Notes: generated by a model not told the origin, from the sequence alone. Positions 4,786 through 20,814 are shown, counted from the stretch's first letter. The stretch: 64,000 nucleotides of DNA from Candidatus Magasanikbacteria bacterium RIFCSPLOWO2_12_FULL_43_12 (GCA_001783065.1 MFQN01000004.1:22836-86835); one strand, 5' to 3'. A program made the numbers and translations.

Positions 4786-5529
4786 TTATTCCCTTATATC
4801 CTTATACTCCTTCGTAAACGGTCTCTTGAAGACTAAAATCCAAAAAAAATTAAGGGCGTAGCGATAGCCGGTGATGAAAGCGCCTTCTTTGGCTAAACGC
4901 CTGCCGGAGCTTAAAATCGGCAGACTGAAAGTAAATTTAACCGGACCGACCGCGCGAATCCTGCGCGCGATGTCCGTATCTTCGCCGTAAAAACTTATGC
5001 TGGTGTCAAAACCGCCTATTTTTTCCAAAGCCGTTCTCCTAACGATAAAATTTCCGCCCTGCAACATCGCGCCCTTTTTAAAAAAAATCTCATTAAAAAT
5101 ATAAATCAAATAACCCAAACCATAAAAAATTTTTGTCTGGATTTTTGTCCACCGCGGCAAATCATAAAATACGCATGGGCCGGATAGAGCCGCCAAGTTT
5201 GGATTACCAGCAAATTCAGTGAAAACTTTTTTTAACCAACCTCCTGGCATTATATTATCCGCGTCGATGTTGGCGATCAAATCTCCCTTAGACGCCAAAA
5301 AACCCGCTTGGCGGGCAAACACTATTCCTTTTTTATTTTCATCAACAACTTTCACGCGTGGAAACGATAGCGCGATTTCTTTTGTCTTGTCAGTGCTCGC
5401 GTTGTTGACAACAATAATTTCCGCTTCGTAAAAATTATTTTTAATCTCTTTCAAAACCGATTCCAAACACCGGCCGATATTGGCTTCTTCATTGTGGGCG
5501 GGAATGATAAACGAAATAGCAAAACCCAT
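4786..5529 (-). CDS. family 2 glycosyltransferase
   Basis: 247 aa. FIIPAHNEEANIGRCLESV...IIVVNNASTDKT...NIDADN motifs typical of GT2. Confidence 0.75.
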   Translation of the reverse strand: MGFAISFIIPAHNEEANIGRCLESVLKEIKNNFYEAEIIVVNNASTDKTKEIALSFPRVKVVDENKKGIVFARQAGFLASKGDLIANIDADNIMPGGWLKKVFTEFAGNPNLAALSGPCVFYDLPRWTKIQTKIFYGLGYLIYIFNEIFFKKGAMLQGGNFIVRRTALEKIGGFDTSISFYGEDTDIARRIRAVGPVKFTFSLPILSSGRRLAKEGAFITGYRYALNFFWILVFKRPFTKEYKDIRE

Positions 5530-5605
5530 AACCCAGCTAACAAAACACAGAGAATTGGCGATTTGGCTCGTTGTGTTTTGTTAATTGTGTTATGAGTTCT
5601 GAAAC

Positions 5606-6118
5606 TCACCAAATCGTCCCTTCGTTTATCGTCTCGTTCAGTGGATCGGAATTATAATATTGGCTCGTATCTTCGTCCACTGTAAATTCCGAACCGGAAT
5701 AGAGCGGTGTCGTCGGCTTGTTGTATTGTTGCGCCTTCAGCAAATATTTGTTGACAAATAAAGTTATGCTGAACGCGCTGAAAGTTATCAGCAGGCCGAT
5801 GACGCAATAACGAATTACTTTCTTCCCCTTTTCAACTTTTTCTTCCTCGCCGGCGGATAAAGTAATCAAAAAACCGGCGTAAACCATATAGAGTGTAAAC
5901 AAAACTCCCACTGTTCCAAGCATCACCTGAACCACCAGCGCCGCCACCTCTCTCGGGTCGCGAGCGTTGCCATAGTTCGCGCCCTTTGTCCCCGCGGCGG
6001 ATTGCAATTGGGTTTGCAGGTCGGTGGTGTAGTCGGCGGATGCTGGAAGAGCTGGCAACACGAAGGCAGACAGAATGATGATTGTAAAAAATAGTTTATA
6101 CATGGATTTAAAACACAT
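5606..6118 (-). CDS. two-helix pilin-like membrane protein, paralog 1 (VirB2/TrbC-like topology)
   Basis: Signal peptide, then a hydrophobic helix ...LYMVYAGFLITLSAGEEEKVEKGKK... and a second helix VIGLLITFSAFSITLFV, then an acidic C-terminal tail. It shares the family motif (L/F)xxY(A/G)G(Y/F)xWMTARGEEE...K....I..IG..I...Y.IT.FV with 11 downstream paralogs. Confidence 0.6.
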   Translation of the reverse strand: MCFKSMYKLFFTIIILSAFVLPALPASADYTTDLQTQLQSAAGTKGANYGNARDPREVAALVVQVMLGTVGVLFTLYMVYAGFLITLSAGEEEKVEKGKKVIRYCVIGLLITFSAFSITLFVNKYLLKAQQYNKPTTPLYSGSEFTVDEDTSQYYNSDPLNETINEGTIW

Positions 6119-6221
6119 AACACAATTAACAAAACACAGAGAATTGACGGTGGACTATTTTCCTGCTTCTTTGCTTTTCTCTAAGCCGTTTATCAGACTC
6201 CACAGCATCGCCCCCACTTCG

Positions 6222-6515
6222 TCAAGGAGGCCCATTGTCTCTTGGTACTCTTTCTGGTTTATCCACTCTCTCTTTTAAACAGAAAAATATTAAATATTTA
6301 CACTCCTTACAAGAACCATACGCGGTTTCAAAAAACTGTATCTTTACTCCTGTCTTAAACCGCGCATGTCCCTCAACAAAATTTAACATTATTGAAATTA
6401 TTGCTCTTCTCAACTGGCTGGTGATGCCATAAATCTCTTCACGGGGAAACTTTTTTGTTAAATCATATACCAACATTATCAAATCGTGCGCTTTCCTTTT
6501 AAAAATTACGCCCAT
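6222..6515 (-). CDS. four-helix-bundle protein (23S rRNA intervening-sequence protein family)
   Basis: KRKAHDLIMLVYDLTKKFPREEIYGITSQLRRAIISIMLNFVEGHARF...AYGSCKECKYLIFF matches the TIGR02436/PF05635 pattern. Confidence 0.7.
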   Translation of the reverse strand: MGVIFKRKAHDLIMLVYDLTKKFPREEIYGITSQLRRAIISIMLNFVEGHARFKTGVKIQFFETAYGSCKECKYLIFFCLKERVDKPERVPRDNGPP

Positions 6516-6610
6516 CCCGTCATTTCCCATATTTTATTTGTTGTGTGTTTTGTATTTTATCGCTCGTCGTGGTTGTGTTTTGTTAATTGTGTTTTGTGTT
6601 CTGAACAACA

Positions 6611-7027
6611 TCACTTCGCAACATCGCCACCCTCTGTCACCAGCGCCGGCAGACGCGAGCCGATAAACAATGTAATACTGTAGGAAAATAATATTATTAT
6701 CAACCCGATAATCGCCATTCTCATTATCTTTCCGCCTTTCTCGGCTTTTTCTTCCTCGCCATGAGAAGTGAAATAATTATACCCGCCGTAGAATATTAAA
6801 ATTGTAAAAACAATGCCGGTTACCGCGAGTATCATCCTTACCACCCCCATTATCGCCAAACGCGGATCAATTGCTTCGGAAAACTGCGCTGTCTCTGCCC
6901 CGGCTTTCACCTGCCCCATCACATTTTCAGTAAGGTCGGCGGAAACCGGCGCCAAACCAAAAATTAAACTCAAACCCAAAGCAAATAGGGCTGTTAAAAT
7001 TAATTTGTGTTTTAGGAAAAAATACAT
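6611..7027 (-). CDS. two-helix pilin-like membrane protein, paralog 2
   Basis: Likely start MYFFLKHKLIL at 7027. The ORF-track N-terminal extension reads through a hairpin repeat. Core ILIFYGGYNYFTSHGEEEKAEKGGKIMRMAIIGLIIILFSYSITLFIG. Confidence 0.6.
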   Translation of the reverse strand: MYFFLKHKLILTALFALGLSLIFGLAPVSADLTENVMGQVKAGAETAQFSEAIDPRLAIMGVVRMILAVTGIVFTILIFYGGYNYFTSHGEEEKAEKGGKIMRMAIIGLIIILFSYSITLFIGSRLPALVTEGGDVAK

Positions 7028-7030
7028 ATT

Positions 7031-7125
7031 ATTTAAGTCATTGCGAGGAACGAAGCCGAAGCGTAGTGACGAAGCAATCCAGAACGATCGCGATGGATTG
7101 CTTCGTCGTCTGCGGACTCCTCGCA
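7031..7125. repeat. long hairpin repeat (family D: ...CTCGCAATGAC / TGGATTGCTTCGTCG...)
   Basis: gtcattgcgaggaacgaagccgaagcgtagtgacgaagcaatcca...tggattgcttcgtcgtctgcggactcctcgcaatgac. A second copy lies inside holA at 25561-25655. Confidence 0.65.
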
Positions 7126-7150
7126 ATGACAGAATGCGTAATCGCTTATA

Positions 7151-7741
7151 TTATTTAAAATCGCTCGCCGAACAAACAGCGCCCGTGGTTTTCGTAATCT
7201 CTTTTGGCGTCGCTTTACAACCCAAATAGCCTTCACATTTCGCTATACATACCTCCCAAGATTCAACAGAATAATCGCAGTCTTTACCGGTCTCCCAAGG
7301 ATCGTCGCCGACTTTTTCACACACCTGGCAACAAATCACTTCCTCTCCTTCATCTTCTCCAGTAACGTCCGTCAACCTTGGCACCACAAAAGTGGTAATG
7401 CTGTATGCTCCGACTAAAATTATAAAACCGATAATTGAAGAAATAATAATTTTTTGCGCTTTTTCCACCGGCTCTTCCTCGCCGCGAGCTGTCATCCACA
7501 GCCAGCCGGCATACACCATCAGGACTAAAAAAATCACGCCGGTAAAAGATAGTATTATCGCGATAATAGAACCGACTGTTTCCGCGAACGTAGTTTCCGT
7601 TGTGTTTGGATTATACCCGGCGTCTTTTGCCGCTTTCTGCGTCGCGCCACTGCCGAAATCTAAAGCAAACGCGCTTGACGCGGCGCTAAATAGTAACACT
7701 GATATCAGACAGAAAAATAAAATTTTGCGAATCTTTGGCAT
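7151..7741 (-). CDS. two-helix pilin-like membrane protein, paralog 3, with a Cys-rich C-terminal domain
   Basis: Likely start MPKIRKILFF at 7741. Core FLVLMVYAGWLWMTARGEEEPVEKAQKIIISSIIGFIILVGAYSITTFVVP. The roughly 70 aa tail has 8 Cys (ICCQVCEK...CDYSVESWEVCIAKCEGYLGCK...CSASDFK). Confidence 0.65.
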   Translation of the reverse strand: MPKIRKILFFCLISVLLFSAASSAFALDFGSGATQKAAKDAGYNPNTTETTFAETVGSIIAIILSFTGVIFLVLMVYAGWLWMTARGEEEPVEKAQKIIISSIIGFIILVGAYSITTFVVPRLTDVTGEDEGEEVICCQVCEKVGDDPWETGKDCDYSVESWEVCIAKCEGYLGCKATPKEITKTTGAVCSASDFK

Positions 7742-7872
7742 AGCGGAGTTCACAGATTCCCTCCTCGGAGGAGGGCGAGGGAGGTGTTCGCCAACCTTCG
7801 CGAACACACCCCCTGCCCCTCTCCGAGAGGGGAAGTTACGAGTTCCCTCCTCGGAGGAGGGCGAGGAAGGTG
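7741..7872. repeat. REP-like triple-hairpin repeat (family A: CCTCCTCGGAGGAGG / GGTGTTCGC..GCGAACACACC / CCCCTCTCCGAGAGGGG)
   Basis: Tandem units. The same element recurs at 8251-8390, 13791-13908, 24083-24203, 32259-32336 and 41093-41176. Variants are at 4118-4156/4571-4607 and 9661-9745/10150-10262. Confidence 0.8.
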
Positions 7873-8265
7873 TTATCCCTCTTTATGATGTTTAATCCAA
7901 TCATTAATAACTTCCCACACACCTTCCATATGACACTTAACTTGGTTCTCGGTAAATCGTAAAAACTTTATATCATTGCTTTCTAAAAACTTTTGTCTTT
8001 GGTTGTCGTAATGAATTTTTCCATCATGACTTATGCCATCCACTTCAATTGCCAACATCAGTTCGGAACAAAAAAAGTCTACAATATAGCGATACAGCGG
8101 TTTTTGACGGTGAAATTTATAACCCTCCAATTGTTTGCCACTTAAGTATTTCCACAAAAGAATTTCGGCCAGTGTAGAATTTAAACGCAAATTTCTTGCC
8201 CGTTCTTTCAGTTTCGGATCGTAAGGAATAAATTTTTTTATCATATTTTTTACCCCAGCGAACAC
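7873..8265 (-). CDS. DUF559 (Vsr-like endonuclease domain) protein, copy 2
   Basis: YKFHRQKPLYRYIVDFFCSELMLAIEVDGISHD...IKFLRFTENQV. Flanked on both sides by family A repeats. Confidence 0.75.
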   Translation of the reverse strand: MFAGVKNMIKKFIPYDPKLKERARNLRLNSTLAEILLWKYLSGKQLEGYKFHRQKPLYRYIVDFFCSELMLAIEVDGISHDGKIHYDNQRQKFLESNDIKFLRFTENQVKCHMEGVWEVINDWIKHHKEG

Positions 8266-8390
8266 ACCCCTTGCCCCTCTCCGAGAGGGGAAGTTACGAG
8301 TTCCCTCCTCGGAGGAGGGCGAGGGAGGTGTTCGCCAACCTTCGCGAACACACCCCCTGCCCCTCTCCGAGAGGGGAGTTGTTGAACTAC
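8251..8390. repeat. REP-like triple-hairpin repeat (family A)
   Basis: cccctctccgagaggggaagttacgagttccctcctcggaggagggcgagggaggtgttcgccaaccttcgcgaacacaccccctgcccctctccgagagggg. Confidence 0.8.
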
Positions 8391-8968
8391 TTACACTCGC
8401 TCGCCGGCTTCAGCCCAATATATTTATATTCCAAACTAAGACATTCTTTTTCTGTCATTGGTTTTTGGGGACATTCTGTCTTGAACCAACCGGACATCCC
8501 TGTTTTGCACAATTTGCAACACTCAACTTTCGTTCCTCCGACTTCTTCGCTCGCGCCGCTGCCGCCGGTTTTGTTCAAAATCTTCGGCACAACAAAAGTT
8601 GTAATACTGTACGCGGCGACGACAATGACCATGCCAATGACCGCGGCGATAATTATTTCATGCGCTTTGCTAATCTGCTCTTCCTCGCCGCGCGCTGTCA
8701 TCCATAAATAACCGGCGTAAACCATTAAAATCAAAAACACCACGCCGAGCATTGATAACACGGCTTGAATCAAAAAACCGATGTTGCCGGAAAAGGTCGT
8801 TTCTGTCGCCGTGTCATATTTAGCTTGAGTTGCCGCGGTGTCCGCTTTTTCCCAGCCCAATAAACTTTGGGCTTTGACATTAGCGGTTGGAAAGAAAGAT
8901 AAAAACAAAACCGAACAAAAAAGAACAAAATTGAACGAAATTAGATTAATTCTTTCTACTCTGTTCAT
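8387..8968 (-). CDS. two-helix pilin-like membrane protein, paralog 4, with a Cys-rich C-terminal domain
   Basis: Core FLILMVYAGYLWMTARGEEEQISKAHEIIIAAVIGMVIVVAAYSITTFVVP. Tail ...VECCKLCKTGMSGWFKTECPQKPMTEKECLSLEYKYIGLKPASECK. The start was chosen at an internal Met to avoid overlap with paralog 5. Confidence 0.6.
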   Translation of the reverse strand: MNRVERINLISFNFVLFCSVLFLSFFPTANVKAQSLLGWEKADTAATQAKYDTATETTFSGNIGFLIQAVLSMLGVVFLILMVYAGYLWMTARGEEEQISKAHEIIIAAVIGMVIVVAAYSITTFVVPKILNKTGGSGASEEVGGTKVECCKLCKTGMSGWFKTECPQKPMTEKECLSLEYKYIGLKPASECK

Positions 8969-8982
8969 AACTAAATTATATC

Positions 8983-9618
8983 TCACTTTATCCATTTACA
9001 CACATTCTTACTACACATTTCTTCCGTATAAACAGAAGCGCAGATATCAGCCACCGTACTTACTTCAACCTCACATTCAACGTCTATGGAACTCCAATCA
9101 CAGACCGCTTCCCCGTCTACCTTCTGTTGGTCGCATTGTTCCGAGTCACTCTCTTTAATTTTTCCGCAATAATCCGCCGCTTTTGTCGCATCAAATGCGC
9201 ACCCAGCTTTTATTGATGTCTCATTTGTCTGTTCTGTGCTACCCCCGCCCAACTTCCCGCTGACAAAAGTCGTAATCGCGTAAGCGCTGGCGACGATGAA
9301 AAATCCGATTAGCGCCGCGGTGATTATTTTCTGCGCTTTGTCAACTTGTTCCTGTTCGCCGCGAGCCGTCATCCATAAATAACCGGCGTAAACCATTAAG
9401 ACCAAAAATATCATGCCGACCAAAGTTATCGCCGCGCCGATGCCAACGCCGATAACATCTTCGGGGTTCTCATAAACATTCGCTTTGGCGCCGTCTGACC
9501 CGGCGACTTTGTCAAATTTGCTCGCCGCGTCTTTCAACCCTTGCGCGTTAACCGCGACGGTTGTTAAAACCAAACCGGCCGAGATAATGAGAATTGTGGT
9601 GAGAATGGATTTTTTCAT
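8983..9618 (-). CDS. two-helix pilin-like membrane protein, paralog 5, with a Cys-rich C-terminal domain
   Basis: Signal peptide MKKSILTTILIISAGLVLTTVAVNAQG. Core FLVLMVYAGYLWMTARGEQEQVDKAQKIITAALIGFFIVASAYAITTFV. The tail has 9 Cys. Confidence 0.65.
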   Translation of the reverse strand: MKKSILTTILIISAGLVLTTVAVNAQGLKDAASKFDKVAGSDGAKANVYENPEDVIGVGIGAAITLVGMIFLVLMVYAGYLWMTARGEQEQVDKAQKIITAALIGFFIVASAYAITTFVSGKLGGGSTEQTNETSIKAGCAFDATKAADYCGKIKESDSEQCDQQKVDGEAVCDWSSIDVECEVEVSTVADICASVYTEEMCSKNVCKWIK

Positions 9619-9660
9619 ACTCTGTTTTTTTACGCAAGCTGAACGTTAATCCGCTCGCCG

Positions 9661-9745
9661 AGACCTCATCCTTTGTCCTTCTCCTACGAGGAGAAGGAAA
9701 CCGCCCACTTCCTCTCTCCTCGTAGGAGAGGCGGGGTGAGGTCTC
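9661..9745. repeat. palindromic repeat variant (GAGACCTCATCCTTTGTCCTTCTCCTACGAGGAGAAGGAAA)
   Basis: A 41 bp unit present at 9661-9701 and again at 10162-10202 in direct orientation, with additional internal hairpins. Confidence 0.7.
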
Positions 9746-10136
9746 AACGGGCGTGTGTTAATTCCGCTATTTTTGTGTTAATAACTTTTAAGACTGTCTC
9801 TGCGTTATAAATGCAATCTTCATTCATTACTCTCATTATATTATATCCTTGTTTTTTAAGCCACGCTTCGCGCCGATTGTCATATTCAATTTGATCGTTA
9901 TGTATTCCACCGTCAACTTCAATTATTAACTTTAATCTGTGGCAGTAGAAATCAACCACAAAACCGCCGATACTTACTTGCCGTCTGAATTTGTAATTTA
10001 ATTCGCGATTCCGTAGTAATTGCCACAACGCATACTCCCCATCAGTAATATCCCGACGAAGCGACCGACGGCGGCGTTTGAGATAATCGCTTGGACGATT
10101 CCTGTCCCGAGGTTCGGTGGTTTTATTAGCTGGCAT
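9744..10136 (-). CDS. DUF559 (Vsr-like endonuclease domain) protein, copy 3
   Basis: YKFRRQVSIGGFVVDFYCHRLKLIIEVDGGIHND...GYNIMRVMNEDC. Bracketed by 41 bp direct repeats. Confidence 0.75.
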   Translation of the reverse strand: MPANKTTEPRDRNRPSDYLKRRRRSLRRDITDGEYALWQLLRNRELNYKFRRQVSIGGFVVDFYCHRLKLIIEVDGGIHNDQIEYDNRREAWLKKQGYNIMRVMNEDCIYNAETVLKVINTKIAELTHAR

Positions 10137-10149
10137 GTTCTATTTATGT

Positions 10150-10262
10150 CAGTTCCGATGAGACCTCATCCTTTGTCCTTCTCCTACGAGGAGAAGGAAA
10201 GTGATTGGAGACCCTCTCCTACCTCCCCCTACAAGGGGGAGGGCTGCACAACTACCCCTCTC
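10150..10262. repeat. palindromic repeat variant (direct partner of 9661-9745)
   Basis: gagacctcatcctttgtccttctcctacgaggagaaggaaa plus CTCCCCCTACAAGGGGGAG hairpins. Confidence 0.7.
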
Positions 10263-10270
10263 TCCCGCAA

Positions 10271-10933
10271 TTAATTCGTCTTTTTCCCTTCCGCCAGCGC
10301 CCAGCATTCGTCCGCGTCGGTGATGTTGTCATACCACGCGCCGTTATGCGACTCGCACAACTGATCTTCTTTGGTGCAGGTCTTAATATTTGTAACGCAA
10401 GTTTCCTGATCGGTTATTTCGCTATTCCACCAATGCGTGTTGCCAACATCCCAAAAACCGCCGACCGCTTCCACCTCATTCAAACAACACCCCAACGGCC
10501 CCTTCGGTTCAGCGGCAGGACCGCTTGTTGCCAGAGGGCCACCCCCTCCGCTTATCATCCTGCTCAAAACAAAATTCGTAATCGCGTAGGAGCCCACCAT
10601 AATAAACAAACCAATAATCGCTCCGATGATTATGTTTTGCGCTTTGGTTATTTGTTCTTCCTCGCCCCTTGCCATCAGCCAGGTGTAGCCACCGTAAAAT
10701 ATCAAGAGAAAAAATATAATGCCGCCGATACTGAACGCGGCTTTGGCGATTCTGCCTGCCAGCGGTTCAATATCAATCTCTTCAGCGCCGATTTTGGTGT
10801 TGGCGTCCGCCGCGAAGCCAGCGGCGTTTTGGGCAGTAAATTTTTCGGCAAAAACGGTTGATGCGGAAAATAAAAAAACAAAATATAACAAAATTGGACA
10901 AAATTTAACAAAATTTTTATTGGACAAAGACAT
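10271..10933 (-). CDS. two-helix pilin-like membrane protein, paralog 6, with a Cys-rich C-terminal domain
   Basis: Core FFLLIFYGGYTWLMARGEEEQITKAQNIIIGAIIGLFIMVGSYAITNFV. The tail has 6 Cys and many Trp/Asn. Confidence 0.65.
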   Translation of the reverse strand: MSLSNKNFVKFCPILLYFVFLFSASTVFAEKFTAQNAAGFAADANTKIGAEEIDIEPLAGRIAKAAFSIGGIIFFLLIFYGGYTWLMARGEEEQITKAQNIIIGAIIGLFIMVGSYAITNFVLSRMISGGGGPLATSGPAAEPKGPLGCCLNEVEAVGGFWDVGNTHWWNSEITDQETCVTNIKTCTKEDQLCESHNGAWYDNITDADECWALAEGKKTN

Positions 10934-10944
10934 ATTTTTGCGTA

Positions 10945-11553
10945 TTACTCGTTACACGAACAGTGCGGACCGATTTTGGCTTCATCCTCTTCATGAAATT
11001 GACAAGTGCCTGATTTAGTCTCTGGGGAATCTGTAAGTGCCCCCCATGTAAAAGTACATGTTGAACCAGTCTGTTTGCCACCACAATCATTTTCATCAAG
11101 ACTCTCTTTAAATGGACAACAATTATTAGCTTTTGTGCATTCTACTGCGGTGTTGTTGTCGCCACCCCCCGACGATGCCGTTCCGGGACCAATACTCTTA
11201 AACACAAAATTTGTAATCGCGTAGGAGGCGAGGACAATGACAATGCCGATGATAGCGGCGGTAATAGTATCAAGCGCCTTGCTTTCCTGTTCCGAATTTC
11301 CGCGCGCGAGCATCCAAGTTAAACCGCCGTATAACATTAAGGCAAAAAACAAAACGCCTACCAGAGACAGGCCGGTGCCGAGTACACTGCCGATGAGGAC
11401 CGGGAGCTGTCCGGGGGCTGTTTTGTCCAACTTGGCCGCGCCAGCGGTTTCCTCAAGACCATATCCTGCCAAAACGATGGTTGGGGCGAAGATGAAAAGA
11501 CAGATGAGAAGAGAGAATAAAAATTTTTTGAAGGACATATTGTTAATTTTCAA
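10945..11553 (-). CDS. two-helix pilin-like membrane protein, paralog 7, with a Cys-rich C-terminal domain
   Basis: Core FFALMLYGGLTWMLARGNSEQESKALDTITAAIIGIVIVLASYAITNFV. Tail ...VECTKANNCCPFKESLDENDCGG...CTF...CQFHEEDEAKIGPHCSCNE. Confidence 0.65.
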   Translation of the reverse strand: MKINNMSFKKFLFSLLICLFIFAPTIVLAGYGLEETAGAAKLDKTAPGQLPVLIGSVLGTGLSLVGVLFFALMLYGGLTWMLARGNSEQESKALDTITAAIIGIVIVLASYAITNFVFKSIGPGTASSGGGDNNTAVECTKANNCCPFKESLDENDCGGKQTGSTCTFTWGALTDSPETKSGTCQFHEEDEAKIGPHCSCNE

Positions 11554-11589
11554 TTTTCAATTTCTAATTTTCAAACAATTTTTAATGAA

Positions 11590-11952
11590 TTAATTTTTAA
11601 TTCCGCCGTTTTTGCGTAATGATGAAGAAATCTTATTGAATATCAAGGTCAGTTGATGTGCTTCGCTCCATAGCGGTCTTAATGTGGCTTTCAATTCTGT
11701 GTTTGTCGTTGCCAGCATCTCCAGCCAATACTTTGTTTCCTGAATTTCTTTGCGGCAGATAAAAATTTTATTTGCAAAATCTTTACGTGAGCTGGCCGCG
11801 TTCGCTTCGCAATAATTAGCCGCCACACTGGTTACTGATCTCCCTAATTGAATGATAATATTTCGATTTAAATCTTTAATTTTGATGGTGGCTAACAGTG
11901 CCATGACATCTTTACTGAATTTTTTAGTTCTTCCCTCCAAATCATACTGCAT
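11590..11952 (-). CDS. four-helix-bundle protein (23S rRNA intervening-sequence protein family), copy 2
   Basis: FSKDVMALLATIKIKDLNRNIIIQLGRSVTSVAANYCEANAASSRKDFANKIFICRKEIQETKYWLEML. Confidence 0.7.
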   Translation of the reverse strand: MQYDLEGRTKKFSKDVMALLATIKIKDLNRNIIIQLGRSVTSVAANYCEANAASSRKDFANKIFICRKEIQETKYWLEMLATTNTELKATLRPLWSEAHQLTLIFNKISSSLRKNGGIKN

Positions 11953-12012
11953 AATTGATTAATTCGGTAATTGAAAATTGTTTGAAAATTGGTAACTGAA
12001 AATTGAAAATTC

Positions 12013-12438
12013 TCAGTACATATCTCCGGTCGTAGAATAATCATACCCGGTCGTGGCTTTGAACAACTGCGACATCACAAAGCGAGTAATGGAATAGGCG
12101 GCGAGGATAATAATCAGGCCAATAACCGCGGCGTAAAGAATCTTTTTCGCGTTGCCGGCTTTTTCCTCATCGCCTCCGGCTGTCATCCAGGTGAATCCGG
12201 CGTAAAGAACCAAAACAAGGGCGATGGTGCCGAGCAAGCCCAACGCCGCGCTGATAATCCGCGCGGTCGTGAACCGCACGTCTGTTTCGCCAAGCCCGGT
12301 TGCCTTGCCGTATTCCATACCGAGATAGGGGCCGGTTTCTTCAACTTGAGCATACGCGTTATTGCCCAAAAGGGTCAAGGCAAAAACCGCGAGAGTGATG
12401 ATGGGAAAAAGTTTTTTCATAATAATTAAATATACCAA
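12013..12438 (-). CDS. two-helix pilin-like membrane protein, paralog 8 (short, no Cys-rich domain)
   Basis: Core LVLVLYAGFTWMTAGGDEEKAGNAKKILYAAVIGLIIILAAYSITRFV. Short tail ending TTGYDYSTTGDMY. Confidence 0.6.
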   Translation of the reverse strand: MVYLIIMKKLFPIITLAVFALTLLGNNAYAQVEETGPYLGMEYGKATGLGETDVRFTTARIISAALGLLGTIALVLVLYAGFTWMTAGGDEEKAGNAKKILYAAVIGLIIILAAYSITRFVMSQLFKATTGYDYSTTGDMY

Positions 12439-12545
12439 TATACTAATGTACTAATGATACTAATGAATACGAATATTTAACATCAGGGGGTATTAGTATA
12501 CATTAGTATCATTAGTACTCTATTTGTATATTAGTATTATAAATT
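12425..12545. repeat. MITE-like palindromic element (family E: TATACTAATGTACTAATGATACTAATG ... CATTAGTATCATTAGTAC)
   Basis: Long inverted repeat with a central acgaatatttaacatcaggggg. A second copy is at about 46700-46830. Confidence 0.7.
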
Positions 12546-12635
12546 AATATTGTTACCGAGAAGCAGCCATCAAAACCGCCGATGGCCGCTTTAACGCTAA
12601 CAACATTCCCTCGAGGGGGTGTTGATTTTGTATGG

Positions 12636-13148
12636 TTAGTCTAGGGTTTCTTGAGTGGAATAATCTCCGCCTGTTGTGGCAGTATATAGCTGTTCAAGCA
12701 CGAACCGAGCTATCGCGTAAGCGCTCAAAATAATCGCCAGGCCCAAAATGCCGGCAAAAATGCGTTTTTTCGCTGTGCCAACTTTCTCATCATCGCCTCC
12801 GGCTGTCATCCATTCAAAACCGCCGACCAACATTATCACGACCGCGACGATACCCAGCAAACCCAACGCTACTCTAATAATGTTTGATATGGTTGTCCTC
12901 ACATCCTGCTTTCCCAAACCAGTATCTTTGACATAGTCTAAACCAACAATGAAATCGCCCTCTTCTTTACCGACATACACACATGCCTCATTCGTACAGC
13001 TGTACCCATCGCCGCAATCAGCATCTGTGGCACAAGTCTTTGCAAAGACCGTGGCTGGCGCGGACGGCAACAATATCAAACCAAACACAATAGAAGCGAG
13101 AACGGTCAGTAACACTTTATGCTTCGTAATTTTCGTTAACCAATACAT
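12636..13148 (-). CDS. two-helix pilin-like membrane protein, paralog 9, with a Cys-rich N-terminal domain
   Basis: Signal peptide, then KTCATDADCGDGYSCTNEACVYVGKEE. Core VIMLVGGFEWMTAGGDDEKVGTAKKRIFAGILGLAIILSAYAIARFV. Confidence 0.6.
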   Translation of the reverse strand: MYWLTKITKHKVLLTVLASIVFGLILLPSAPATVFAKTCATDADCGDGYSCTNEACVYVGKEEGDFIVGLDYVKDTGLGKQDVRTTISNIIRVALGLLGIVAVVIMLVGGFEWMTAGGDDEKVGTAKKRIFAGILGLAIILSAYAIARFVLEQLYTATTGGDYSTQETLD

Positions 13149-13215
13149 ATTCTCACCCCCTTTCTTGTTTAAAATGATTCAAAACACAGAACACAATTAA
13201 CAGAACACATTGCGA

Positions 13216-13785
13216 TTACGACCCGTTCAGTTTTTCCTCCCATTTGCAGTTAGCGCCGCCGGATTGATTATTTTGTTCGCAGTCTTGCTGATCAATGGCT
13301 GCTTTAACGCTTGACTGATTGTTCTCCTCGCACAAACATTGATATTCTTTCTCTTTTTCCGGAACTTCCGACATTATTGGCGCAACAGGCGAAGGCCCTC
13401 CCGTGGCTCCAATCGCTTCCAAAACTAAATTCAGTATAGCATAAGCGCCAAAAATTAAAAATAGCCCGATTGCCGCCCACATCATTGTGTCTAAACCTTT
13501 CTTCACTTTTTCCGTATTGCCGGCTGAAGTAAGCCACAAAAACCCACCGTAAACAAAGGCCATTAAAACTAATGAGCCCACAACCCCCATCGCGCCCGCG
13601 ATGATATTGCCGATAAGCACCCGTATATCAGTCAATCCTTGCGGTTTTTCCGCGGTCCCACCCAAAGGATTGATTAGAGTAACGGTGGTTACGGGAGGAT
13701 CGGTTGGGCCGGCGGCAACAGTGATGGGAAATAGGACTGAAAATGAAAGTAAAATAATGATTAAAAATTTTTTCATATTAAACAT
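13216..13785 (-). CDS. two-helix pilin-like membrane protein, paralog 10, with a Cys-containing C-terminal domain
   Basis: Likely start MFNMKKFLIIILLSF at 13785. The ORF-track extension reads into a family A repeat. Core LVLMAFVYGGFLWLTSAGNTEKVKKGLDTMMWAAIGLFLIFGAYAILNLV. Tail ...YQCLCEENNQSS...CEQNNQSGGANCKWEE. Confidence 0.6.
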   Translation of the reverse strand: MFNMKKFLIIILLSFSVLFPITVAAGPTDPPVTTVTLINPLGGTAEKPQGLTDIRVLIGNIIAGAMGVVGSLVLMAFVYGGFLWLTSAGNTEKVKKGLDTMMWAAIGLFLIFGAYAILNLVLEAIGATGGPSPVAPIMSEVPEKEKEYQCLCEENNQSSVKAAIDQQDCEQNNQSGGANCKWEEKLNGS

Positions 13786-13790
13786 AGTAA

Positions 13791-13908
13791 CCTCCCCTCT
13801 CGAAAAAGGGCGGGTTGTAAATTCCCTCCTCGGAGGAGGGCGCGGGAGGTGTTCGTCAACACTCGCGAACACACCCCCTGCCCCTCTCCGAGAGGGGAGG
13901 TTACGATT
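13791..13908. repeat. REP-like triple-hairpin repeat (family A), solo copy
   Basis: ccctcctcggaggagggcgcgggaggtgttcgtcaacactcgcgaacacaccccctgcccctctccgagaggggagg. Confidence 0.8.
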
Positions 13909-13962
13909 GTTGTGTTTATTTTCGTAGTTCGTAATTTCGTATTCTTTTCGTATGTTCGCACA

Positions 13963-15048
13963 TCACTTTATCCCTCTAAACTCCGTATTCACATTCAAAA
14001 TTTCCAGCATCAAATCAATCGCCGCGTAAGCGACCATGGCGACCACGAGTCCGAGCGCGGCCGCGATCATTGTTTTCTTCCCGGTCTCCACCATTTCCGC
14101 GTTGCCCATAGAGACAATCATCTTGAAACCGCCATAAACGAAAAACGCGAATGCGAATGTGCCTAAAATCGCGAACATGCCGCTGGCGAAATTTATTATT
14201 AATTCCAATAAATTATTCACACTCCGGCAAGTCCCGGAAAACGCGCAGTCAGGCAAAGCGCCAGCATAGTCCTTCGGTTTTCCGTACTGGTTTTCTATCC
14301 AAGCGTCAACGGTGGAGGTGGTCTGCACCGGCGAAACGCCGGTGACGGAAAAATATATACTTCCATCAAGAGTTTGTGATTCTACTCCAGCGACAGGAAC
14401 AGATGCCTTTACTTTCAATTCATAAACTTTTGTTATCAGTTGTTCCGTTGATGTGTCCCAAACAATCTTTGCTTTTCCGCTTCCATCTTCATTTTTTAGC
14501 TCCGCGCTTAATTCCTCGCAATTAACGCATTTTATCTCAATTTCTTCTTTGGTGCCGACGGCCTCAATCTCCGCTGTGCCAATTTTCCCTTCTGTAACTG
14601 GGATCGGATTGCTTTTACTTCCTACATTTGTATTCCACTTCAAATTATACCATTTCACCCAGTCATACATTGTTGCTCCGTTAGTATCTGTGTAAGTTAC
14701 CGCATGATACAACTGACATTTTGGCGTGTCAGCTGTAACGCATACTTTTTTTTGATCAACCGCAAACTGTAAAAGATTTTCACAATCCTCTGTTTTTAAA
14801 AATTTGATAGTCTCATCAACATCCTTAAACGATATCTCTTCGGCCTCGGTTTCACCCAGCCCAATCTCCAATTCCTCCTCTGTATAATAACATCCTCCAT
14901 CTGAAGTCTGTTGAGAATATTTGCAATAACACTTATCACTATACGTCAAAAAAGCCGCGTTTTCTGAAGCATAAACATTTTGTACGTACACCAACACAAT
15001 CGCTAAACCAGCAATGATAGTGATTAGATATTTAATCTGATTCCGCAT
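13963..15048 (-). CDS. two-helix pilin-like membrane protein, paralog 11, with a large (about 270 aa) Cys-containing N-terminal ectodomain
   Basis: Signal/TM MRNQIKYLITIIAGLAIVLVYV. Long variable domain. C-terminal core FAFAFFVYGGFKMIVSMGNAEMVETGKKTMIAAALGLVVAMVAYAAIDLM. Confidence 0.55.
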   Translation of the reverse strand: MRNQIKYLITIIAGLAIVLVYVQNVYASENAAFLTYSDKCYCKYSQQTSDGGCYYTEEELEIGLGETEAEEISFKDVDETIKFLKTEDCENLLQFAVDQKKVCVTADTPKCQLYHAVTYTDTNGATMYDWVKWYNLKWNTNVGSKSNPIPVTEGKIGTAEIEAVGTKEEIEIKCVNCEELSAELKNEDGSGKAKIVWDTSTEQLITKVYELKVKASVPVAGVESQTLDGSIYFSVTGVSPVQTTSTVDAWIENQYGKPKDYAGALPDCAFSGTCRSVNNLLELIINFASGMFAILGTFAFAFFVYGGFKMIVSMGNAEMVETGKKTMIAAALGLVVAMVAYAAIDLMLEILNVNTEFRGIK

Positions 15049-15057
15049 ACTATAAAC

Positions 15058-16431
15058 CTACATCGTCTGTTGAATTAACTTCGCCGCGTTGGTTAAAAGC
15101 TGGACATCTTTTTGATTCTCGCTCTTAGTGGAGCCTGACGGCTGTAAACTGTTGTGCAGCATTTCAGTAAATACTTTCGCGGCCGCTTCTTTATTTTTGC
15201 CTCTATACCAACTCTCGGCTTGCAAGATCGTGCTGACAAACGGTTTCAGCATCTCATTAGCTTCTTGATCTTTAATCTGCGAACGCAGAGGCGTGGGCCG
15301 CTTGGTCGCGTCAGTATATTTTTTTATATTATCCGGCGTAGTCATGAATCTTACGAAATCCCACGCTTCATCCTGATGTTTAGATTTTTTTACTACTGTT
15401 TCCAGCCAATAATTCGCCACATTCGTCGGCGAGGCTTCGTTCAGTTGCAAAATCGGCATAATTTCCAAATCCATTTGCGGAGCGCGGGCTTTGATAAGCG
15501 GGTAATCGTAGGCGAAACCGAAATAAAATACACTTTTGCCGGACGAGAAGTTTTCCAGCGCGTCTTTCATTGTTTCATTCCAGCTATAAACCTCTTTTGT
15601 CGGACGGGCGAAGTCGGTATAAAAACGCAACGCGACTAATGCCGGATGATTTGGTTTGCCGGCAGTGAGCCCGTCGGCAAAACTAACGCGGTTGCCCGAC
15701 GCCATTTTGGCTCCGCTTTGCGACATAAACAAAGAAAGAATATCAAACGCGCGGTCAATATTATTTCCGGTTCCTAAAGCAACGCCGGACTGAACAATGT
15801 CGCCTTTTTCATTGAACCGCGTGCTGGTCTTAACCGCGGCCATAAATTCATCCCAGGTCTTTGGCGCTTCCGCCACGCCGGATTTATCTAACAGTTCTTT
15901 ATTATAATATAAAGCCATGGTATCAAACGCGAGCGGTAGACCGTAAATTTTATTATCAATCACCGCGTCATCATAAACCGCGTTGACAAAGCTGTATTTA
16001 ATCGCGCTGACCGACGGCATTTTATTCTCTTCAATGGTAACGACCTGTTCTTTTGTATATTGACTCTTGATGTAAACATTCGCGACTTTCACGCTCGCGG
16101 GCATCGGCGCGAGCCAAGAAACATACCTGCGCAAATCGCGCGGACTCACAGAAATAATATCCGGCGGCACATCGTCGGCAAGAGCGCGCAATAATAATTG
16201 TTCAAGTTCCTCGCCGCGCACTTTACGGATGTTTATTTTTACATACGGCCTCTGCGCCTCGTATTCCTTCTTGAAAACGTCAAGCTGATCCAGATCATTA
16301 TAAACTGTCCAATAATTTAACTTGACCGGCTTAACCGCGGCGGCTTGCTCGGCGGAAAGACCCTTGCAACCGAAACCAAGCATGGTAACGAGGGTTAACA
16401 AAGAGAAAAGGGTTAGGTATTTTTTTAGCAT
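15058..16431 (-). CDS. ABC transporter extracellular solute-binding lipoprotein (sugar-type, family 1)
   Basis: 457 aa. Lipobox LGFGC. Overall SBP_bac_1-like composition. Confidence 0.7.
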   Translation of the reverse strand: MLKKYLTLFSLLTLVTMLGFGCKGLSAEQAAAVKPVKLNYWTVYNDLDQLDVFKKEYEAQRPYVKINIRKVRGEELEQLLLRALADDVPPDIISVSPRDLRRYVSWLAPMPASVKVANVYIKSQYTKEQVVTIEENKMPSVSAIKYSFVNAVYDDAVIDNKIYGLPLAFDTMALYYNKELLDKSGVAEAPKTWDEFMAAVKTSTRFNEKGDIVQSGVALGTGNNIDRAFDILSLFMSQSGAKMASGNRVSFADGLTAGKPNHPALVALRFYTDFARPTKEVYSWNETMKDALENFSSGKSVFYFGFAYDYPLIKARAPQMDLEIMPILQLNEASPTNVANYWLETVVKKSKHQDEAWDFVRFMTTPDNIKKYTDATKRPTPLRSQIKDQEANEMLKPFVSTILQAESWYRGKNKEAAAKVFTEMLHNSLQPSGSTKSENQKDVQLLTNAAKLIQQTM

Positions 16432-16495
16432 ATTAATTATGTGCGAACTTACGAAAAGAGTACGAAATTACGAACTACGAAAACTTGCTTTTTAT

Positions 16496-16906
16496 TCAAT
16501 ACTCGTTAATCACTCTTTTTATAACCACGCCGCTGTGGGTAAAACAGGCGACGATGGCCAGCTTCAAATTCAATGCCACCAAATACTGTTTTGTTTGCGC
16601 TATCACTTGCGCCGACACAAACTGACCTCTCTTTAACTCTAAAACAATTTTATCATCAATCAAAAAATCTAAATAATATTTCCCTACCATGCTATCAAAG
16701 CACTTCAACGGCACATAATATTGCTCTTCAAATTTTAACGCTTCTTTTGTCAAACCGGCAGCCACGCCTTTCTGATAATAACTTTCCCTGTGTCCGCCGC
16801 CAAGTTGTTTAAACACCTCTATCAAAACTCCATTAATTTTAAAACTCAATTCCGGATACAGCAAGTCTTTCCTGCGCACAACATATTCCCTCCCCTGATA
16901 TGTCAT
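16496..16906 (-). CDS. GxxExxY family protein
   Basis: LYPELSFKINGVLIEVFKQLGGGHRESYYQKGVAAGL contains the GxxExxY motif (GHRESYY). Confidence 0.7.
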   Translation of the reverse strand: MTYQGREYVVRRKDLLYPELSFKINGVLIEVFKQLGGGHRESYYQKGVAAGLTKEALKFEEQYYVPLKCFDSMVGKYYLDFLIDDKIVLELKRGQFVSAQVIAQTKQYLVALNLKLAIVACFTHSGVVIKRVINEY

Positions 16907-16988
16907 AAATTTTCATTCTAAATTTCGTAGTTCGTAATTTCGTACTCTTTTCGTATGTTCGCACATTCCATAGTTCGCACATCCCACA

Positions 16989-17651
16989 TTACTCTACTGC
17001 AGAAAAGATGAACGATACTATCGTATAACTCGCGAAAATAACGAACAAACCGAGCGTGGCCCAGACGACGATGTTTTTCGCCTGCGTGGATCTTTCCGCG
17101 TTTCCGCCGGCCAGCATCCAAAGCACTCCGGCGTAGGCGAATAGCGCCAAAGCGATACTACCCATCAATCCCATCGCGACTTTGATAATATTGCCCAAAA
17201 CATTCTTTATATCAGTGTCCTCTAATGTATTTAGACCACTAACTGGTGGAATGTCCAATGCGGGCGCGGCATCAGAATCTTCGGCTGTATCTGTTTTTGT
17301 TATATTCCCCTCCCATTTGCAATTAAAATTCTCGCCATCTTTTTCTTGTAAAGGCAAGCAGCCAATCTCTGTTGTCTCTATGCTGAAACCTCCGCCTTTT
17401 TCACCATCACAATTACAGGCGGCTGTTTTTTCTTCTCCTGATGACCATTCACACTCATAACCAATATTACTGTCCGTCTCCGCGCAACCTTCCTCGTCAG
17501 CCGACGATTCCATGGTAGTCTTGCCGCCATCGCTGTCGGTGATTGTGCAAAAACACGTGCCATTATCCGCTAACGCTGTGTTTAATGAAAAAAACAAAAG
17601 ACCTGACGCTAAAAATATAAATAACAGTGAAAATAAAAACTTATTCTTCAT
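16989..17651 (-). CDS. two-helix pilin-like membrane protein, paralog 12, with an acidic Cys-rich N-terminal domain
   Basis: The N-terminal domain has 8 Cys (CFCTITDSDGG...CAETDSNIGYECEW...CNCDGEKGG...CLPLQEKDGENFNCKWEG). Core ALALFAYAGVLWMLAGGNAERSTQAKNIVVWATLGLFVIFASYTIVSF. Confidence 0.6.
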   Translation of the reverse strand: MKNKFLFSLLFIFLASGLLFFSLNTALADNGTCFCTITDSDGGKTTMESSADEEGCAETDSNIGYECEWSSGEEKTAACNCDGEKGGGFSIETTEIGCLPLQEKDGENFNCKWEGNITKTDTAEDSDAAPALDIPPVSGLNTLEDTDIKNVLGNIIKVAMGLMGSIALALFAYAGVLWMLAGGNAERSTQAKNIVVWATLGLFVIFASYTIVSFIFSAVE

Positions 17652-18478
17652 ACTCTGTTTTTAAAAAACGACGCGGCATCCAAAAGAGCGTCCTGATTAC
17701 CGGTATCTAAATATTTTCCTTCGTATTCATAAGCGAAAAAATCTTTCTGGCGCGCCAATGTGTTGGCCGCTTCCGCGAGCCAAATTTCTCCGCTCCGGCC
17801 TCTCTTCTGTTTTAATAAAATCGGCCAAATGTCCGGAGTAAAAATATAGCGCATGCCGCCGACTATCAATCCCAACGGCGACACCAAATCAATTGCCGGC
17901 TTTTCAACAAACTCTTTCACTTTATAAGTCCGCTTATCAACAGTCGGCTCGCCATACACATTGCCATATTTAGTCATCATGTTTTTGTCCGCAATTTTCT
18001 GCACTCCGATCACCGACGCGGAAGTCTGTTGATAAACTTCCAACAATTGTTTAACTGCCGGAATCTTGCCGCTGATAATACTGTCAGCGTCAGAACAAAC
18101 AAACGGCTCTTTTCCAATCAACTCGCGCGCCATCAACAAGGCGTGGCCATTTCCGAACGGTCTTTCCTGATACACGAAACTAAATTTAACTTTTTTAAGC
18201 AAATCTATCAGCCCAGCTATTCTATCATACTTTCCGCATTTTTTTAATTCTTTTTCAAATCTCAAGTCGCGGGTGAAATAATGTTTGATCGCCTGCTTCT
18301 CGCGGCTGATGACAATAATAATATTTTTAATCCCGCTATCCGCCATCTCTTCCGCTATATACTGTAAAACCGGCTTATTCAAAACCGGCAGCATTTCCTT
18401 TGGGATGGATTTGGTAATCGGCAAAAAACGCGTGCCCAAACCGGCGGCGAGAATTATGCCTTTGTGTACTTTTTTCAT
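17648..18478 (-). CDS. galU: UTP--glucose-1-phosphate uridylyltransferase
   Basis: GIILAAGLGTRFLPITKSIPKEMLPV...IAEEMADSGIKNIIIV. Confidence 0.8.
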   Translation of the reverse strand: MKKVHKGIILAAGLGTRFLPITKSIPKEMLPVLNKPVLQYIAEEMADSGIKNIIIVISREKQAIKHYFTRDLRFEKELKKCGKYDRIAGLIDLLKKVKFSFVYQERPFGNGHALLMARELIGKEPFVCSDADSIISGKIPAVKQLLEVYQQTSASVIGVQKIADKNMMTKYGNVYGEPTVDKRTYKVKEFVEKPAIDLVSPLGLIVGGMRYIFTPDIWPILLKQKRGRSGEIWLAEAANTLARQKDFFAYEYEGKYLDTGNQDALLDAASFFKNRV

Positions 18479-20024: not shown

Positions 20025-20146
20025 ACGAAAAGGATACGAAATTACGAACTACGAACAGCGAATTGGGGTAAAAAATAAAAATATATATATCATCATGATA
20101 TTTCGTAGTTCGTAATTTCGTAATTGTTCGTAAGTTCGCACATAAC

Positions 20147-20812: not shown

Positions 20813-20814
20813 AA

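Follow-up and report, generated by a model that had tools for sequence, protein, structure and literature searches.

Results

A tandem array of 12 pilin-like genes

We analysed a 64,000-nucleotide (nt) stretch of DNA, called the window below, from Candidatus Magasanikbacteria bacterium RIFCSPLOWO2_12_FULL_43_12 (GCA_001783065.1, MFQN01000004.1:22836-86835), in which 12 minus-strand open reading frames (ORFs) at 5606-17651 form an array of genes encoding divergent, two-helix pilin-like proteins. A preliminary description, made from the sequence alone, had named these genes and quoted motifs of a common core; the 12 ORFs were present at exactly the coordinates given there, and both alignment and a hidden Markov model (HMM) bore out the core. 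In a local MAFFT alignment, an ungapped 73-residue block was common to all 12 proteins. Helix 1 of this block ends in Y-(A/G)-G-x-x-W-M-x-A-x-G and is followed by an acidic loop and then K..K, helix 2 carries the motif I-G-x-x-I-x-x-x-x-Y-x-I-T-x-F-V, and five columns (G17, G28, G36, E39, and G54) are invariant across the paralogues. When the core HMM was compared with the ORFs of the window, the 12 members gave E values of 1e-24 to 1e-33, and the next-best ORF of at least 50 amino acids (aa) in the 64 kb had an E value of 0.14. Therefore, there are exactly 12 copies, with no 13th, and their similarity is far beyond chance. The identity between paralogous cores was 21-60%, and therefore collapsed strain variants are excluded.

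The genes, named by their lower coordinates, are as follows (minus strand throughout; scores are for PF18895).

16989..17651, minus: pilin-like gene 1 (16989), 220 aa, 37.2 bits; signal peptide ALA↓D; hypervariable N-terminal ectodomain of 119 aa with 8 Cys; the protein ends in the hairpin core
13963..15048, minus: gene 2 (13963), 361 aa, 39 bits; 252-aa N-terminal ectodomain with 10 Cys, then the core
13216..13785, minus: gene 3 (13216), likely 189 aa, 34.7 bits; 63-aa C-terminal tail with 4 Cys
12636..13148, minus: gene 4 (12636), 170 aa, 40.9 bits; 46-aa N-terminal extension with a 4-Cys knot; 86-88% identical to its orthologues
12013..12420, minus: gene 5 (12013), 135 aa, 39.5 bits; the most "minimal" member and a candidate major subunit
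10945..11538, minus: gene 6 (10945), ~197 aa, 28.1 bits; hypervariable 80-aa C-terminal tail with 8 Cys
10271..10933, minus: gene 7 (10271), 220 aa, 33.9 bits; 93-aa C-terminal tail with 6 Cys
8983..9618, minus: gene 8 (8983), 211 aa, 31.3 bits; hypervariable 87-aa C-terminal tail with 8 Cys
8387..8995, minus: gene 9 (8387), 202 aa (193 if the start is at 8968), 34.3 bits; 62-aa C-terminal tail with 6 Cys
7151..7741, minus: gene 10 (7151), ~196 aa, 28.7 bits; hypervariable 72-aa C-terminal tail with 8 Cys
6611..7027, minus: gene 11 (6611), ~138 aa, 34.8 bits; short termini, no Cys; 85% identical to a 139-aa orthologue
5606..6103, minus: gene 12 (5606), ~165 aa, 33.6 bits; 43-aa C-terminal tail without Cys; 85% identical to a 165-aa orthologue

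Although the ORFs exist as listed in the preliminary description, six of them start too far upstream there. From internal ATG codons and the lengths of orthologues, the likely starts were moved downstream to 13785, 12420, 11538, 7741, 7027, and 6103; that of gene 13216 (ATG at 13785) was chosen from an upstream GGAGG motif and a 188-aa orthologue. The start of gene 8387 is uncertain (8995, possibly 8968). Two genes lie between gene 16989 and the other members: a PD-(D/E)XK cassette and the gene for a solute-binding protein (SBP).

The earlier statement that everything outside the core is unrelated between copies holds for nearly all of the proteins but not for the 12013/12636 pair, which shares juxta-core segments (E ~1e-3 to 1e-4). 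There was no detectable mutual similarity among the other paralogue ectodomains.

Family membership, topology, and predicted folds

All 12 proteins passed the gathering threshold of PF18895 (T4SS_pilin, a family typical of the candidate phyla radiation, CPR), with 28.1-40.9 bits relative to a threshold of 26.6. A 57-sequence family profile was aligned by hhalign with VirB2 of Agrobacterium tumefaciens, taken from the genuine virB2 gene of pTiC58, and it was found that 58 columns matched with a probability of 70% (E 3.9e-5), with both helices in register and the W-M motif at the end of helix 1 included. The top NCBIfam match was NF045849, the "Mbov_0395 family pilin-like conjugal transfer protein" of a Mycoplasma integrative and conjugative element (ICE). 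The five members tested scored 35.4, 34.1, 27.2, 20.9, and 15.9 bits (E 6e-9 to 8e-3), none of which reaches the cut-off of 40 bits, though nearly the whole 80-position profile was covered.

Hydropathy plots of all 12 proteins showed an N-terminal hydrophobic segment with an A/V-x-A site, followed by two hydrophobic helices. The predicted cleavage sites are ALA↓D, VYA↓S, VAA↓G, VFA↓K, AYA↓Q, VLA↓G, VFA↓E, VNA↓Q, VKA↓Q, AFA↓L, VSA↓D, and ASA↓D. An AlphaFold2 (AF2) model of the gene 12013 product contained a long α-hairpin (H48-79/H85-124) with a predicted local distance difference test (pLDDT) score above 95. None of the 12 proteins matched the class III signal profiles (N_methyl/GFxxxE; PF07963 and TIGR02532), whereas the motif is carried by the neighbours at 20147-20812 and 20815-22608. 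The preliminary description had proposed a signal peptide ahead of each core, the VirB2/TrbC topology, and membership of a type IV secretion system (T4SS)-pilin-like family of the CPR, and it had set the proteins apart from type IV pilins; on each of these points the present results agree with it.

A VirB2-like topology with a cleaved leader places both termini outside and the loop inside, so that appendages at either end would be extracellular. Cysteines lie on the N-terminal side in genes 12636 (4), 13963 (10), and 16989 (8) and on the C-terminal side in genes 7151, 8387, 8983, 10271, 10945, and 13216 (8, 6, 8, 6, 8, and 4, respectively), and the core is Cys-free save for a single Cys in gene 5606. 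The appendage counts are always even, which agrees with what would be expected of disulfide-bonded extracytoplasmic modules. Five of the signal peptides contain Cys; a lipoprotein reading of these residues was rejected because there is no lipobox.

No ectodomain of the 12 matched any Pfam family above threshold. In the AF2 model of the gene 13963 product, residues ~120-240 of the ectodomain formed a β-sandwich (pLDDT 80-92) that gave weak immunoglobulin (Ig)/cadherin-like Foldseek matches (E ~1e-3). This ectodomain is thus predicted to contain an Ig-like β-sandwich.

Conservation of the array in relatives

The closest homologues were found in Candidatus Magasanikbacteria (Patescibacteria/Parcubacteria group), which are placed in GTDB class ABY1 (Quinonero-Coronel et al., Microb Genom 2025, PMC12102498). 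Syntenic arrays were present in independent assemblies, with 12 pilin genes in GCA_016207245.1 (L001), 13 in L005, 11 in L002, and a partial array in L004. In the gene order common to the relatives, trigger factor is followed by three pseudopilin-like genes and a GalU-like gene, and then by the first pilin gene, an SBP gene, the other pilin genes, and a family-2 glycosyltransferase gene. The window and L001 are collinear, with 1:1 reciprocal best matches of 46-91% identity, and the best paralogue within the genome reached at most 57% identity (best local alignment).

Array size was surveyed in 33 loci of GTDB species representatives with full coverage of ±10 kb. Arrays of 8-16 core-bearing genes were present in 28 of these loci, with a maximum of 16 (L021). 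Arrays of 8-16 genes are therefore the norm in the Magasanikbacteria and relatives sampled. Where the flank was long enough, almost every array locus had kept the GalU-like gene, the embedded SBP gene, and the three pseudopilin genes, down to ~35-45% identity.

Two proteins from short ENA metagenome contigs were nearly the same as array products: P0121 was 100% identical to the 361-aa protein of gene 13963, and P0001 was 99% identical to the gene 12013 protein, for which the nearest GTDB species representative reached at most 81%. These copies indicate that the same organism has been sampled independently. Many metagenome-assembled genome records with Magasanikbacteria-type arrays are titled "uncultured Gammaproteobacteria bacterium", and one (L083) is titled "Candidatus Udaeobacter sp."; these titles are evidently bulk-submission mislabels.

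Conserved cores and fast-diverging ectodomains

The cores of orthologues in the window and L001 were 85-99% identical, and the housekeeping neighbours (the SBP, GalU-like, family-2 glycosyltransferase, and pseudopilin proteins) were 79-90% identical. The array cores equal or exceed most housekeeping neighbours in conservation, but four Cys-rich ectodomains have diverged roughly 10-fold faster and are sharply bounded. In gene 16989, the core was 93% identical to that of L001 and the N-terminal domain 31-37% (~37-40% of aligned residues), with a nonsynonymous divergence (dN) of 0.66; in gene 10945, the core was 99% and the C-terminal tail 27-33% identical (dN 0.84). Gene 8983 had a 97% identical core and a 33-35% identical tail (dN 0.67) relative to its orthologue. 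In gene 7151, the mature N-terminus and core were 99% identical and the tail 43-46% (dN 0.60), and the boundary is abrupt, with 99% identity up to the first tail residues. Other tails were more similar to those of their orthologues, at 71% for gene 10271 and 60-64% for gene 8387. Thus, dN was 0.60-0.84 for the four fast ectodomains, as compared with 0.05-0.06 in housekeeping genes and 0.01-0.09 in the cores. We give only dN because synonymous divergence (dS) in the tails was saturated or the tails were unalignable (proportion of synonymous differences, pS, 0.77-0.85), which makes a dN/dS test for positive selection invalid.

The gene 13963 ectodomain was 83% identical between the window and L001, 44% between the window and L004, and 51% between L004 and L001, although L004 and L001 are the closest pair by housekeeping genes (90-93%). 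This ectodomain is therefore phylogenetically incongruent, and its divergence is limited to the membrane-distal part. As compared here at the sequence level, the ectodomain pattern would fit either the replacement of modules by recombination or a lineage-specific acceleration. The phrase "exchangeable ectodomains on a pilin-like scaffold" in the preliminary description gains support from the conserved cores and the fast, mosaic ectodomains.

Fused hairpins and giant proteins in the wider family

An exhaustive search with a profile of the 12 cores retrieved 73,980 cluster representatives (50% identity) at E<=1e-3, of which 22,844 were at E<=1e-10. In the top matches, several cores stand in tandem within one polypeptide that has no signal peptides between them: P0150 has six cores in 552 aa, P0153 has five, and P0165 has ~17 in 1,775 aa (loci L088:1777-3435 and L087:10001-15328 for the poly-hairpin genes). 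P0150 lies within an array of single-core genes, and the contig of P0165 is archaeal-looking, with the gene adjoining those for ribosomal protein L39e and Cas4/Csa1. The linkers in these proteins join the outside C-terminus of one hairpin to the outside N-terminus of the next, which is topologically consistent. We read the fusions as "Rosetta-stone" evidence, suggesting that neighbouring hairpins would assemble side by side.

Other Patescibacteria have loci with two core genes (L035:9965-19522, L028:9875-20269, L060, L064, L067, and others). These encode proteins of 620-750 aa and of more than 3,000 aa, in which the hairpin core near the N-terminus is followed by Ig-like domains; in the >3,000-aa ORF, the core at residues ~50-130 is followed by TIG, Big_5, and Big_7 domains. 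From their domain content, these products appear to be giant adhesin-like proteins anchored by the pilin core.

Genomic setting and neighbouring genes

The replication-origin region was found at 35970-39241 (dnaN 35970-37094, dnaA 37349-38752, rpmH 38981-39241), and the cumulative GC skew had its minimum at ~34-38 kb of the window. The dnaA position and this minimum place the array on the leading strand of the left replichore, 20-32 kb away from the origin. A location close to the origin agrees with what has been published for T4SS components, which lie near dnaA (PMC12102498). The genes next to and within the array are as follows.

4786..5529, minus: family-2 glycosyltransferase (Glycos_transf_2, 107.6 bits), downstream neighbour, in the same position in L001 and L005
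15058..16431, minus: orphan extracellular SBP, 457 aa (SBP_bac_8 and SBP_bac_1, ~100 bits)
17648..18478, minus: GalU-like nucleotidyl transferase (NTP_transferase, 108 bits), conserved upstream neighbour
18609..22608, minus: three type-IV-pilin-like (pseudopilin) genes, 471, 221, and 597 aa, conserved upstream neighbours

The N_methyl/IV_pilin_GFxxxE matches among the pseudopilin-like proteins were to those of 221 and 597 aa. The conserved housekeeping neighbours include a XerC-like integrase (2210-3175), and the large ORFs of the window include PolA, a class A penicillin-binding protein, an M23/LysM peptidase, a ComM-like protein of the Mg-chelatase family, and others. The protein with LysM and Peptidase_M23 domains (455 aa, 50921-52288, minus strand) lies 33 kb off the array; some VirB1-like T4SS cell-wall hydrolases of Patescibacteria have LysM/M23 domains (PMC12102498).

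A scan for sigma-70 promoters and intrinsic terminators gave no useful signal (22 terminator-like sites, with 22.6 expected), and no Rfam family was found within the array. Two matches to the Acido-Lenti-1 RNA (RF01687) on the minus strand, at 40592-40637 and 49162-49208, scored 37.6 and 43.4 bits (gathering threshold 37) and are unrelated to the array.

Inserted cassettes and hairpin elements

Six small "selfish-type" genes, all bracketed by repeats, were found: three DUF559, two 23S-rRNA intervening sequence (IVS)-protein, and one PDDEXK_3 gene. The repeat-bracketed regions are 4104-4630, 6107-6605, 7742-8420, 9660-10220, 11538-12018, and 16439-16966, and the repeats are 32-75 nt, direct or inverted, and built of short oligomer motifs. 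The cassettes in the array are as follows.

16496..16906, minus: PD-(D/E)XK (PDDEXK_3) cassette, Pfam 73.8 bits; 44-nt inverted repeats 16439-16482 / 16923-16966, 98% complementary
11590..11952, minus: 23S-rRNA-IVS-protein cassette, four-helix bundle, Pfam 48.7 bits; 58-nt inverted repeats 11538-11595 / 11961-12018
9744..10136, minus: DUF559 endonuclease-like cassette, Pfam 119 bits; 41-nt direct repeats 9660-9700 / 10160-10200, 100% identical
7873..8265, minus: DUF559 cassette, Pfam 107 bits; 75-nt direct repeats 7800-7874 / 8258-8332, 97% identical, which are a GC-rich hairpin element
6222..6530, minus: 23S-rRNA-IVS-protein cassette, Pfam 78.9 bits; AT-rich inverted repeats 6107-6138 / 6574-6605, 91% complementary

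The PDDEXK_3 cassette and the IVS-protein cassette at 11590..11952 are missing at the corresponding L001 junctions, and the junction corresponding to the DUF559 cassette at 7873..8265 has no such gene. In general, the orthologous L001 junctions contain a hairpin-forming spacer without an ORF, or another cassette (GIY-YIG or PDDEXK_3, at other positions). Because the cassettes are absent from or differently placed in the junctions of the relative, they are recent insertions and not parts of the system. They look like IVS-like units, or units resembling miniature inverted-repeat transposable elements, that insert into intergenic hairpins.

The GC-rich palindromic element also occurs alone, at 13786-13910 and 24085-24205, with the motifs CCCCTCTCCGAGAGGGG and CCCTCCTCGGAGGAGGG, and it flanks DUF559 genes as well. 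The two solo copies form highly stable hairpins, with folding energies of -81 and -69 kcal/mol (z = -8.4 and -6.2, respectively). In ORFs 7151 and 13216, the N-terminal extensions (…GEHLPRPPPRRE…) are spurious and come from translation of this element. At the gene boundaries 5518-5605, 18520-18610, and 22646-22750, there are AT-rich imperfect hairpins (AACACAATTAACAAAACACA / TGTGTTTTGTTAATTGTGTT; z = -6.2, -7.8, and -3.5, respectively), which could represent terminators, sites of RNA processing, or cassette sites that are empty.

Discussion

Patescibacteria (CPR) are a huge and mostly uncultured bacterial branch living attached to other microbes, and a T4SS with a pilin array is one of a small number of systems proved, in Southlakia, to be essential to this way of life. 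The interpretation that we favour, and hold to be rather likely, is that the locus is a VirB2-like "pilin array" whose hairpins co-assemble into a T4SS-associated, heteromeric surface filament or stalk with appendages that contact the host. The steps that we infer are as follows. Sec would export the 12 precursors, signal peptidase I would cut them after the A/V-x-A site, and the mature hairpin would insert so that its two termini face outward and its short charged loop (R/G-G-E-E-E...K..K) lies on the inner side. The appendages, which are putative disulfide-rich mini-domains with 4-10 Cys plus one Ig-like β-sandwich, would be extracellular. A VirB4-type T4SS encoded elsewhere in the genome would drive assembly of the filament or stalk, in which the nearly invariant cores may form the shaft and the variable appendages may decorate the surface and contact host cells. 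Judged by sequence comparison, the 12 genes appear not to be redundant but to be ancient, order-conserved paralogues, each with a strongly constrained core, and a subset has fast, mosaic ectodomains, as expected of determinants of host contact or host range.

Several observations weigh against this interpretation. Scores with PF04956 (TrbC/VirB2) stayed below the gathering threshold of 27.9 bits, so that of the two Pfam comparisons suggested in the preliminary description one was positive for all 12 proteins and the other fell below threshold; on the other hand, the sub-threshold matches of 3 of the 12 proteins, at 22.4 (gene 12636), 20.1 (gene 12013), and 15.5 bits, and about a dozen database homologues that matched both families count in favour of the interpretation. 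A sequence profile search of the PDB returned no pilin, the match being a designed protein at E 0.26, and fold searches were non-specific in that every helical hairpin matches. To our knowledge, pili of the PF18895-type family have not been observed in any member of the Patescibacteria. Chains of 5-17 hairpins and fusions of more than 3,000 aa fit poorly in a canonical, tightly packed VirB2 pilus. Furthermore, VirB4, VirB6, and coupling-protein genes are absent from the 64-kb window, where Pfam scans confirmed the earlier remark that there is no T4SS ATPase or channel gene, and in L001, L002, and L005 none of these genes was found in the ±10 kb around the array. Searching the ORFs of the window and of 86 loci by phmmer with A. 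tumefaciens VirB4 and TraG found nothing, which is uninformative because the MPF-FATA-type VirB4 is very distant, and a Pfam scan of the recurrent large neighbours was therefore made instead. In 80 loci, these neighbours (PNPase, SBPs, a Fib_succ_major protein, HisRS, EngA, and similar proteins) included no T4SS ATPase. The conserved neighbours of the arrays are pseudopilin, GalU-like, SBP, and glycosyltransferase genes and not virB4.

A syntenic 11-gene array was found in Magasanikbacteria GW2011_GWC2_37_14 (L013), a genome listed as VirB4-positive in Table S1 of PMC12102498. Therefore, the T4SS is probably encoded elsewhere in the genome, unlinked to the array.

In an alternative that we regard as possible but distinctly less likely than a T4SS-associated filament, the hairpin would be no pilus subunit but a module for membrane anchoring and oligomerisation, and the 12 proteins would form, independently of the T4SS, either a hetero-oligomeric membrane complex of fixed composition or simply anchored surface proteins. 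Such a module would display adhesin-like or ligand-binding ectodomains and work with the pseudopilins, SBP, and glycosylation enzymes. It would account for tandem cores in one chain, including one such protein inside a single-core array, for the fusion of TIG and Big_5/Big_7 domains to the same core, and for the linkage of the sampled arrays to N_methyl pseudopilins, the GalU-like gene, and the embedded SBP in place of a T4SS ATPase; strict positional orthology and paralogue-specific conservation of the cores suggest non-interchangeable subunits. However, PF18895-type genes lie near virB4 in 1,135 of 1,948 Patescibacteria assemblies (PMC12102498), and in Southlakia epibionticum ML1 the genes of the T4SS cluster that are predicted to encode pilins are essential (Wang et al., Cell 2023, PMC10633639). 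The core is also more conserved than a mere anchor needs and aligns in register with VirB2, and the fused hairpins could be proteolytically processed or mimic a layer of a filament.

More speculatively, the array could be the parts list of a single heteromeric organelle of fixed composition, in which up to 12-16 non-interchangeable hairpins lie side by side and some ectodomains are swapped by recombination, with coupling to the pseudopilins and SBP and not to a T4SS. This idea, to which we give slightly less weight than to the anchoring module, follows from the conserved gene order, the paralogue-specific core conservation, and the "Rosetta-stone" fusions of 5-17 hairpins. If it is true, the swapping of ectodomains between lineages would retarget host recognition, and the coupling to pseudopilins and an orphan SBP could point to the capture of host-derived molecules.

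Antigenic or phase variation, with an expressed gene rewritten from silent copies as in pilE/pilS or with paralogues expressed alternately so as to escape host defences, as has been proposed for the VirB2 paralogues of Anaplasma and Bartonella, is improbable. The tandem divergent paralogues, their variable exposed parts, and the mosaic ectodomains between strains would be in keeping with it, as would the analogy with Bartonella and Anaplasma, by which versatility in host range has been proposed for Patescibacteria (PMC12102498). However, all 12 genes are complete, with start codon, signal peptide, and core, and they have 1:1 positional orthologues in other species, which argues against rapid birth-and-death or homogenisation; no invertible promoters or recombinase sites were identified. 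Gene conversion from silent cassettes was rejected because the paralogue ectodomains have no detectable similarity to one another that would support it.

An assembly artefact of collapsed or concatenated variants, which the preliminary description had allowed for, and ordinary type IV pilins with a class III signal can practically be dismissed, for although the organism is of a metagenome type and type IV pilin-like genes lie directly upstream at 18609-22608, the divergence of the cores, the same 12-gene order in the independent L001 assembly, the arrays in 28 of 33 related loci, and the lack of an N_methyl/GFxxxE motif in the 12 proteins, unlike their neighbours, all speak against them.

Taken together, the ancient paralogues in fixed order, their conserved cores, the hypervariable domains, and the fusions favour a heteromeric surface structure that contacts the host. 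Specific ectodomains are candidate host-range determinants that are testable in genetically tractable relatives.

Comparison with known systems

The VirB2, TrbC, and TraA pilins of A. tumefaciens, RP4, and F resemble the array proteins in their long Sec leader, hydrophobic hairpin, short polar loop, and outside termini. In contrast, the loop of the array proteins is ~8 residues longer and strongly charged, the ectodomains reach 250 aa (more than 3,000 aa in relatives), and there are many paralogues in place of one major pilin. Furthermore, the array host is monoderm, no T4SS genes are near, and neither cyclisation nor a TraF-type peptidase is indicated. Anaplasma phagocytophilum and Bartonella likewise have tandem, divergent VirB2 paralogues with variable exposed parts and a proposed diversification of host interaction, but these belong to diderm intracellular pathogens with canonical VirB clusters, whereas the array copies are stable 1:1 orthologues whose variation lies in appended domains and not in the pilin body. 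The NF045849 protein of the Mycoplasma ICE comes from a monoderm or wall-less host with an MPF-FATA-type T4SS, a class related to the VirB4 of Patescibacteria, but it is encoded by a single gene on a mobile element and not by a chromosomal array.

The closest counterparts are the VirB2-like arrays of Patescibacteria, and the earlier view that so large a paralogue set fits no described system must be given up, since such arrays are reported in PMC12102498, PMC10633639, and PMC12857230. A search of 3,035 Patescibacteria genomes with PF18895 and PF04956 identified 441 arrays of 2-11 genes in 383 assemblies, with an average identity between paralogues of 25% and a maximum of 54% (PMC12102498). A 2025 review describes the 6-gene pilin array of Southlakia as a remarkable feature for a T4SS of a monoderm (PMC12857230), and the passages of McLean et al. 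2020 (PMC7427843) that were searched make no mention of VirB2, pilin, or "secreted array". The published definition of an array is at least two PF18895/PF04956 genes of low identity in Patescibacteria, in tandem or one non-pilin gene apart (PMC12102498). By this spacing the array in the window comprises 11 genes, with the twelfth two genes away (11 plus 1). It is like the published arrays in belonging to PF18895 and the same phylum and in being a tandem, sometimes interrupted, chromosomal and origin-proximal set of divergent paralogues. It is unlike them in having 12 genes (8-16 in relatives) as compared to 2-11, and in lying not beside virB4 but in a neighbourhood of pseudopilin, GalU-like, SBP, and glycosyltransferase genes.

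Therefore, the array is a large and well-preserved example of the pilin arrays described in Patescibacteria, at the upper end of the reported sizes, and not a new system. Strict positional orthology, disulfide-rich hypervariable ectodomains, and mobile mini-cassettes are not mentioned in the searched passages of PMC12102498 and PMC10633639. Relative to the literature searched, the positional orthology, the hypervariable mosaic ectodomains, the linkage to pseudopilin and SBP genes in place of virB4, and the poly-hairpin fusions are possibly new.

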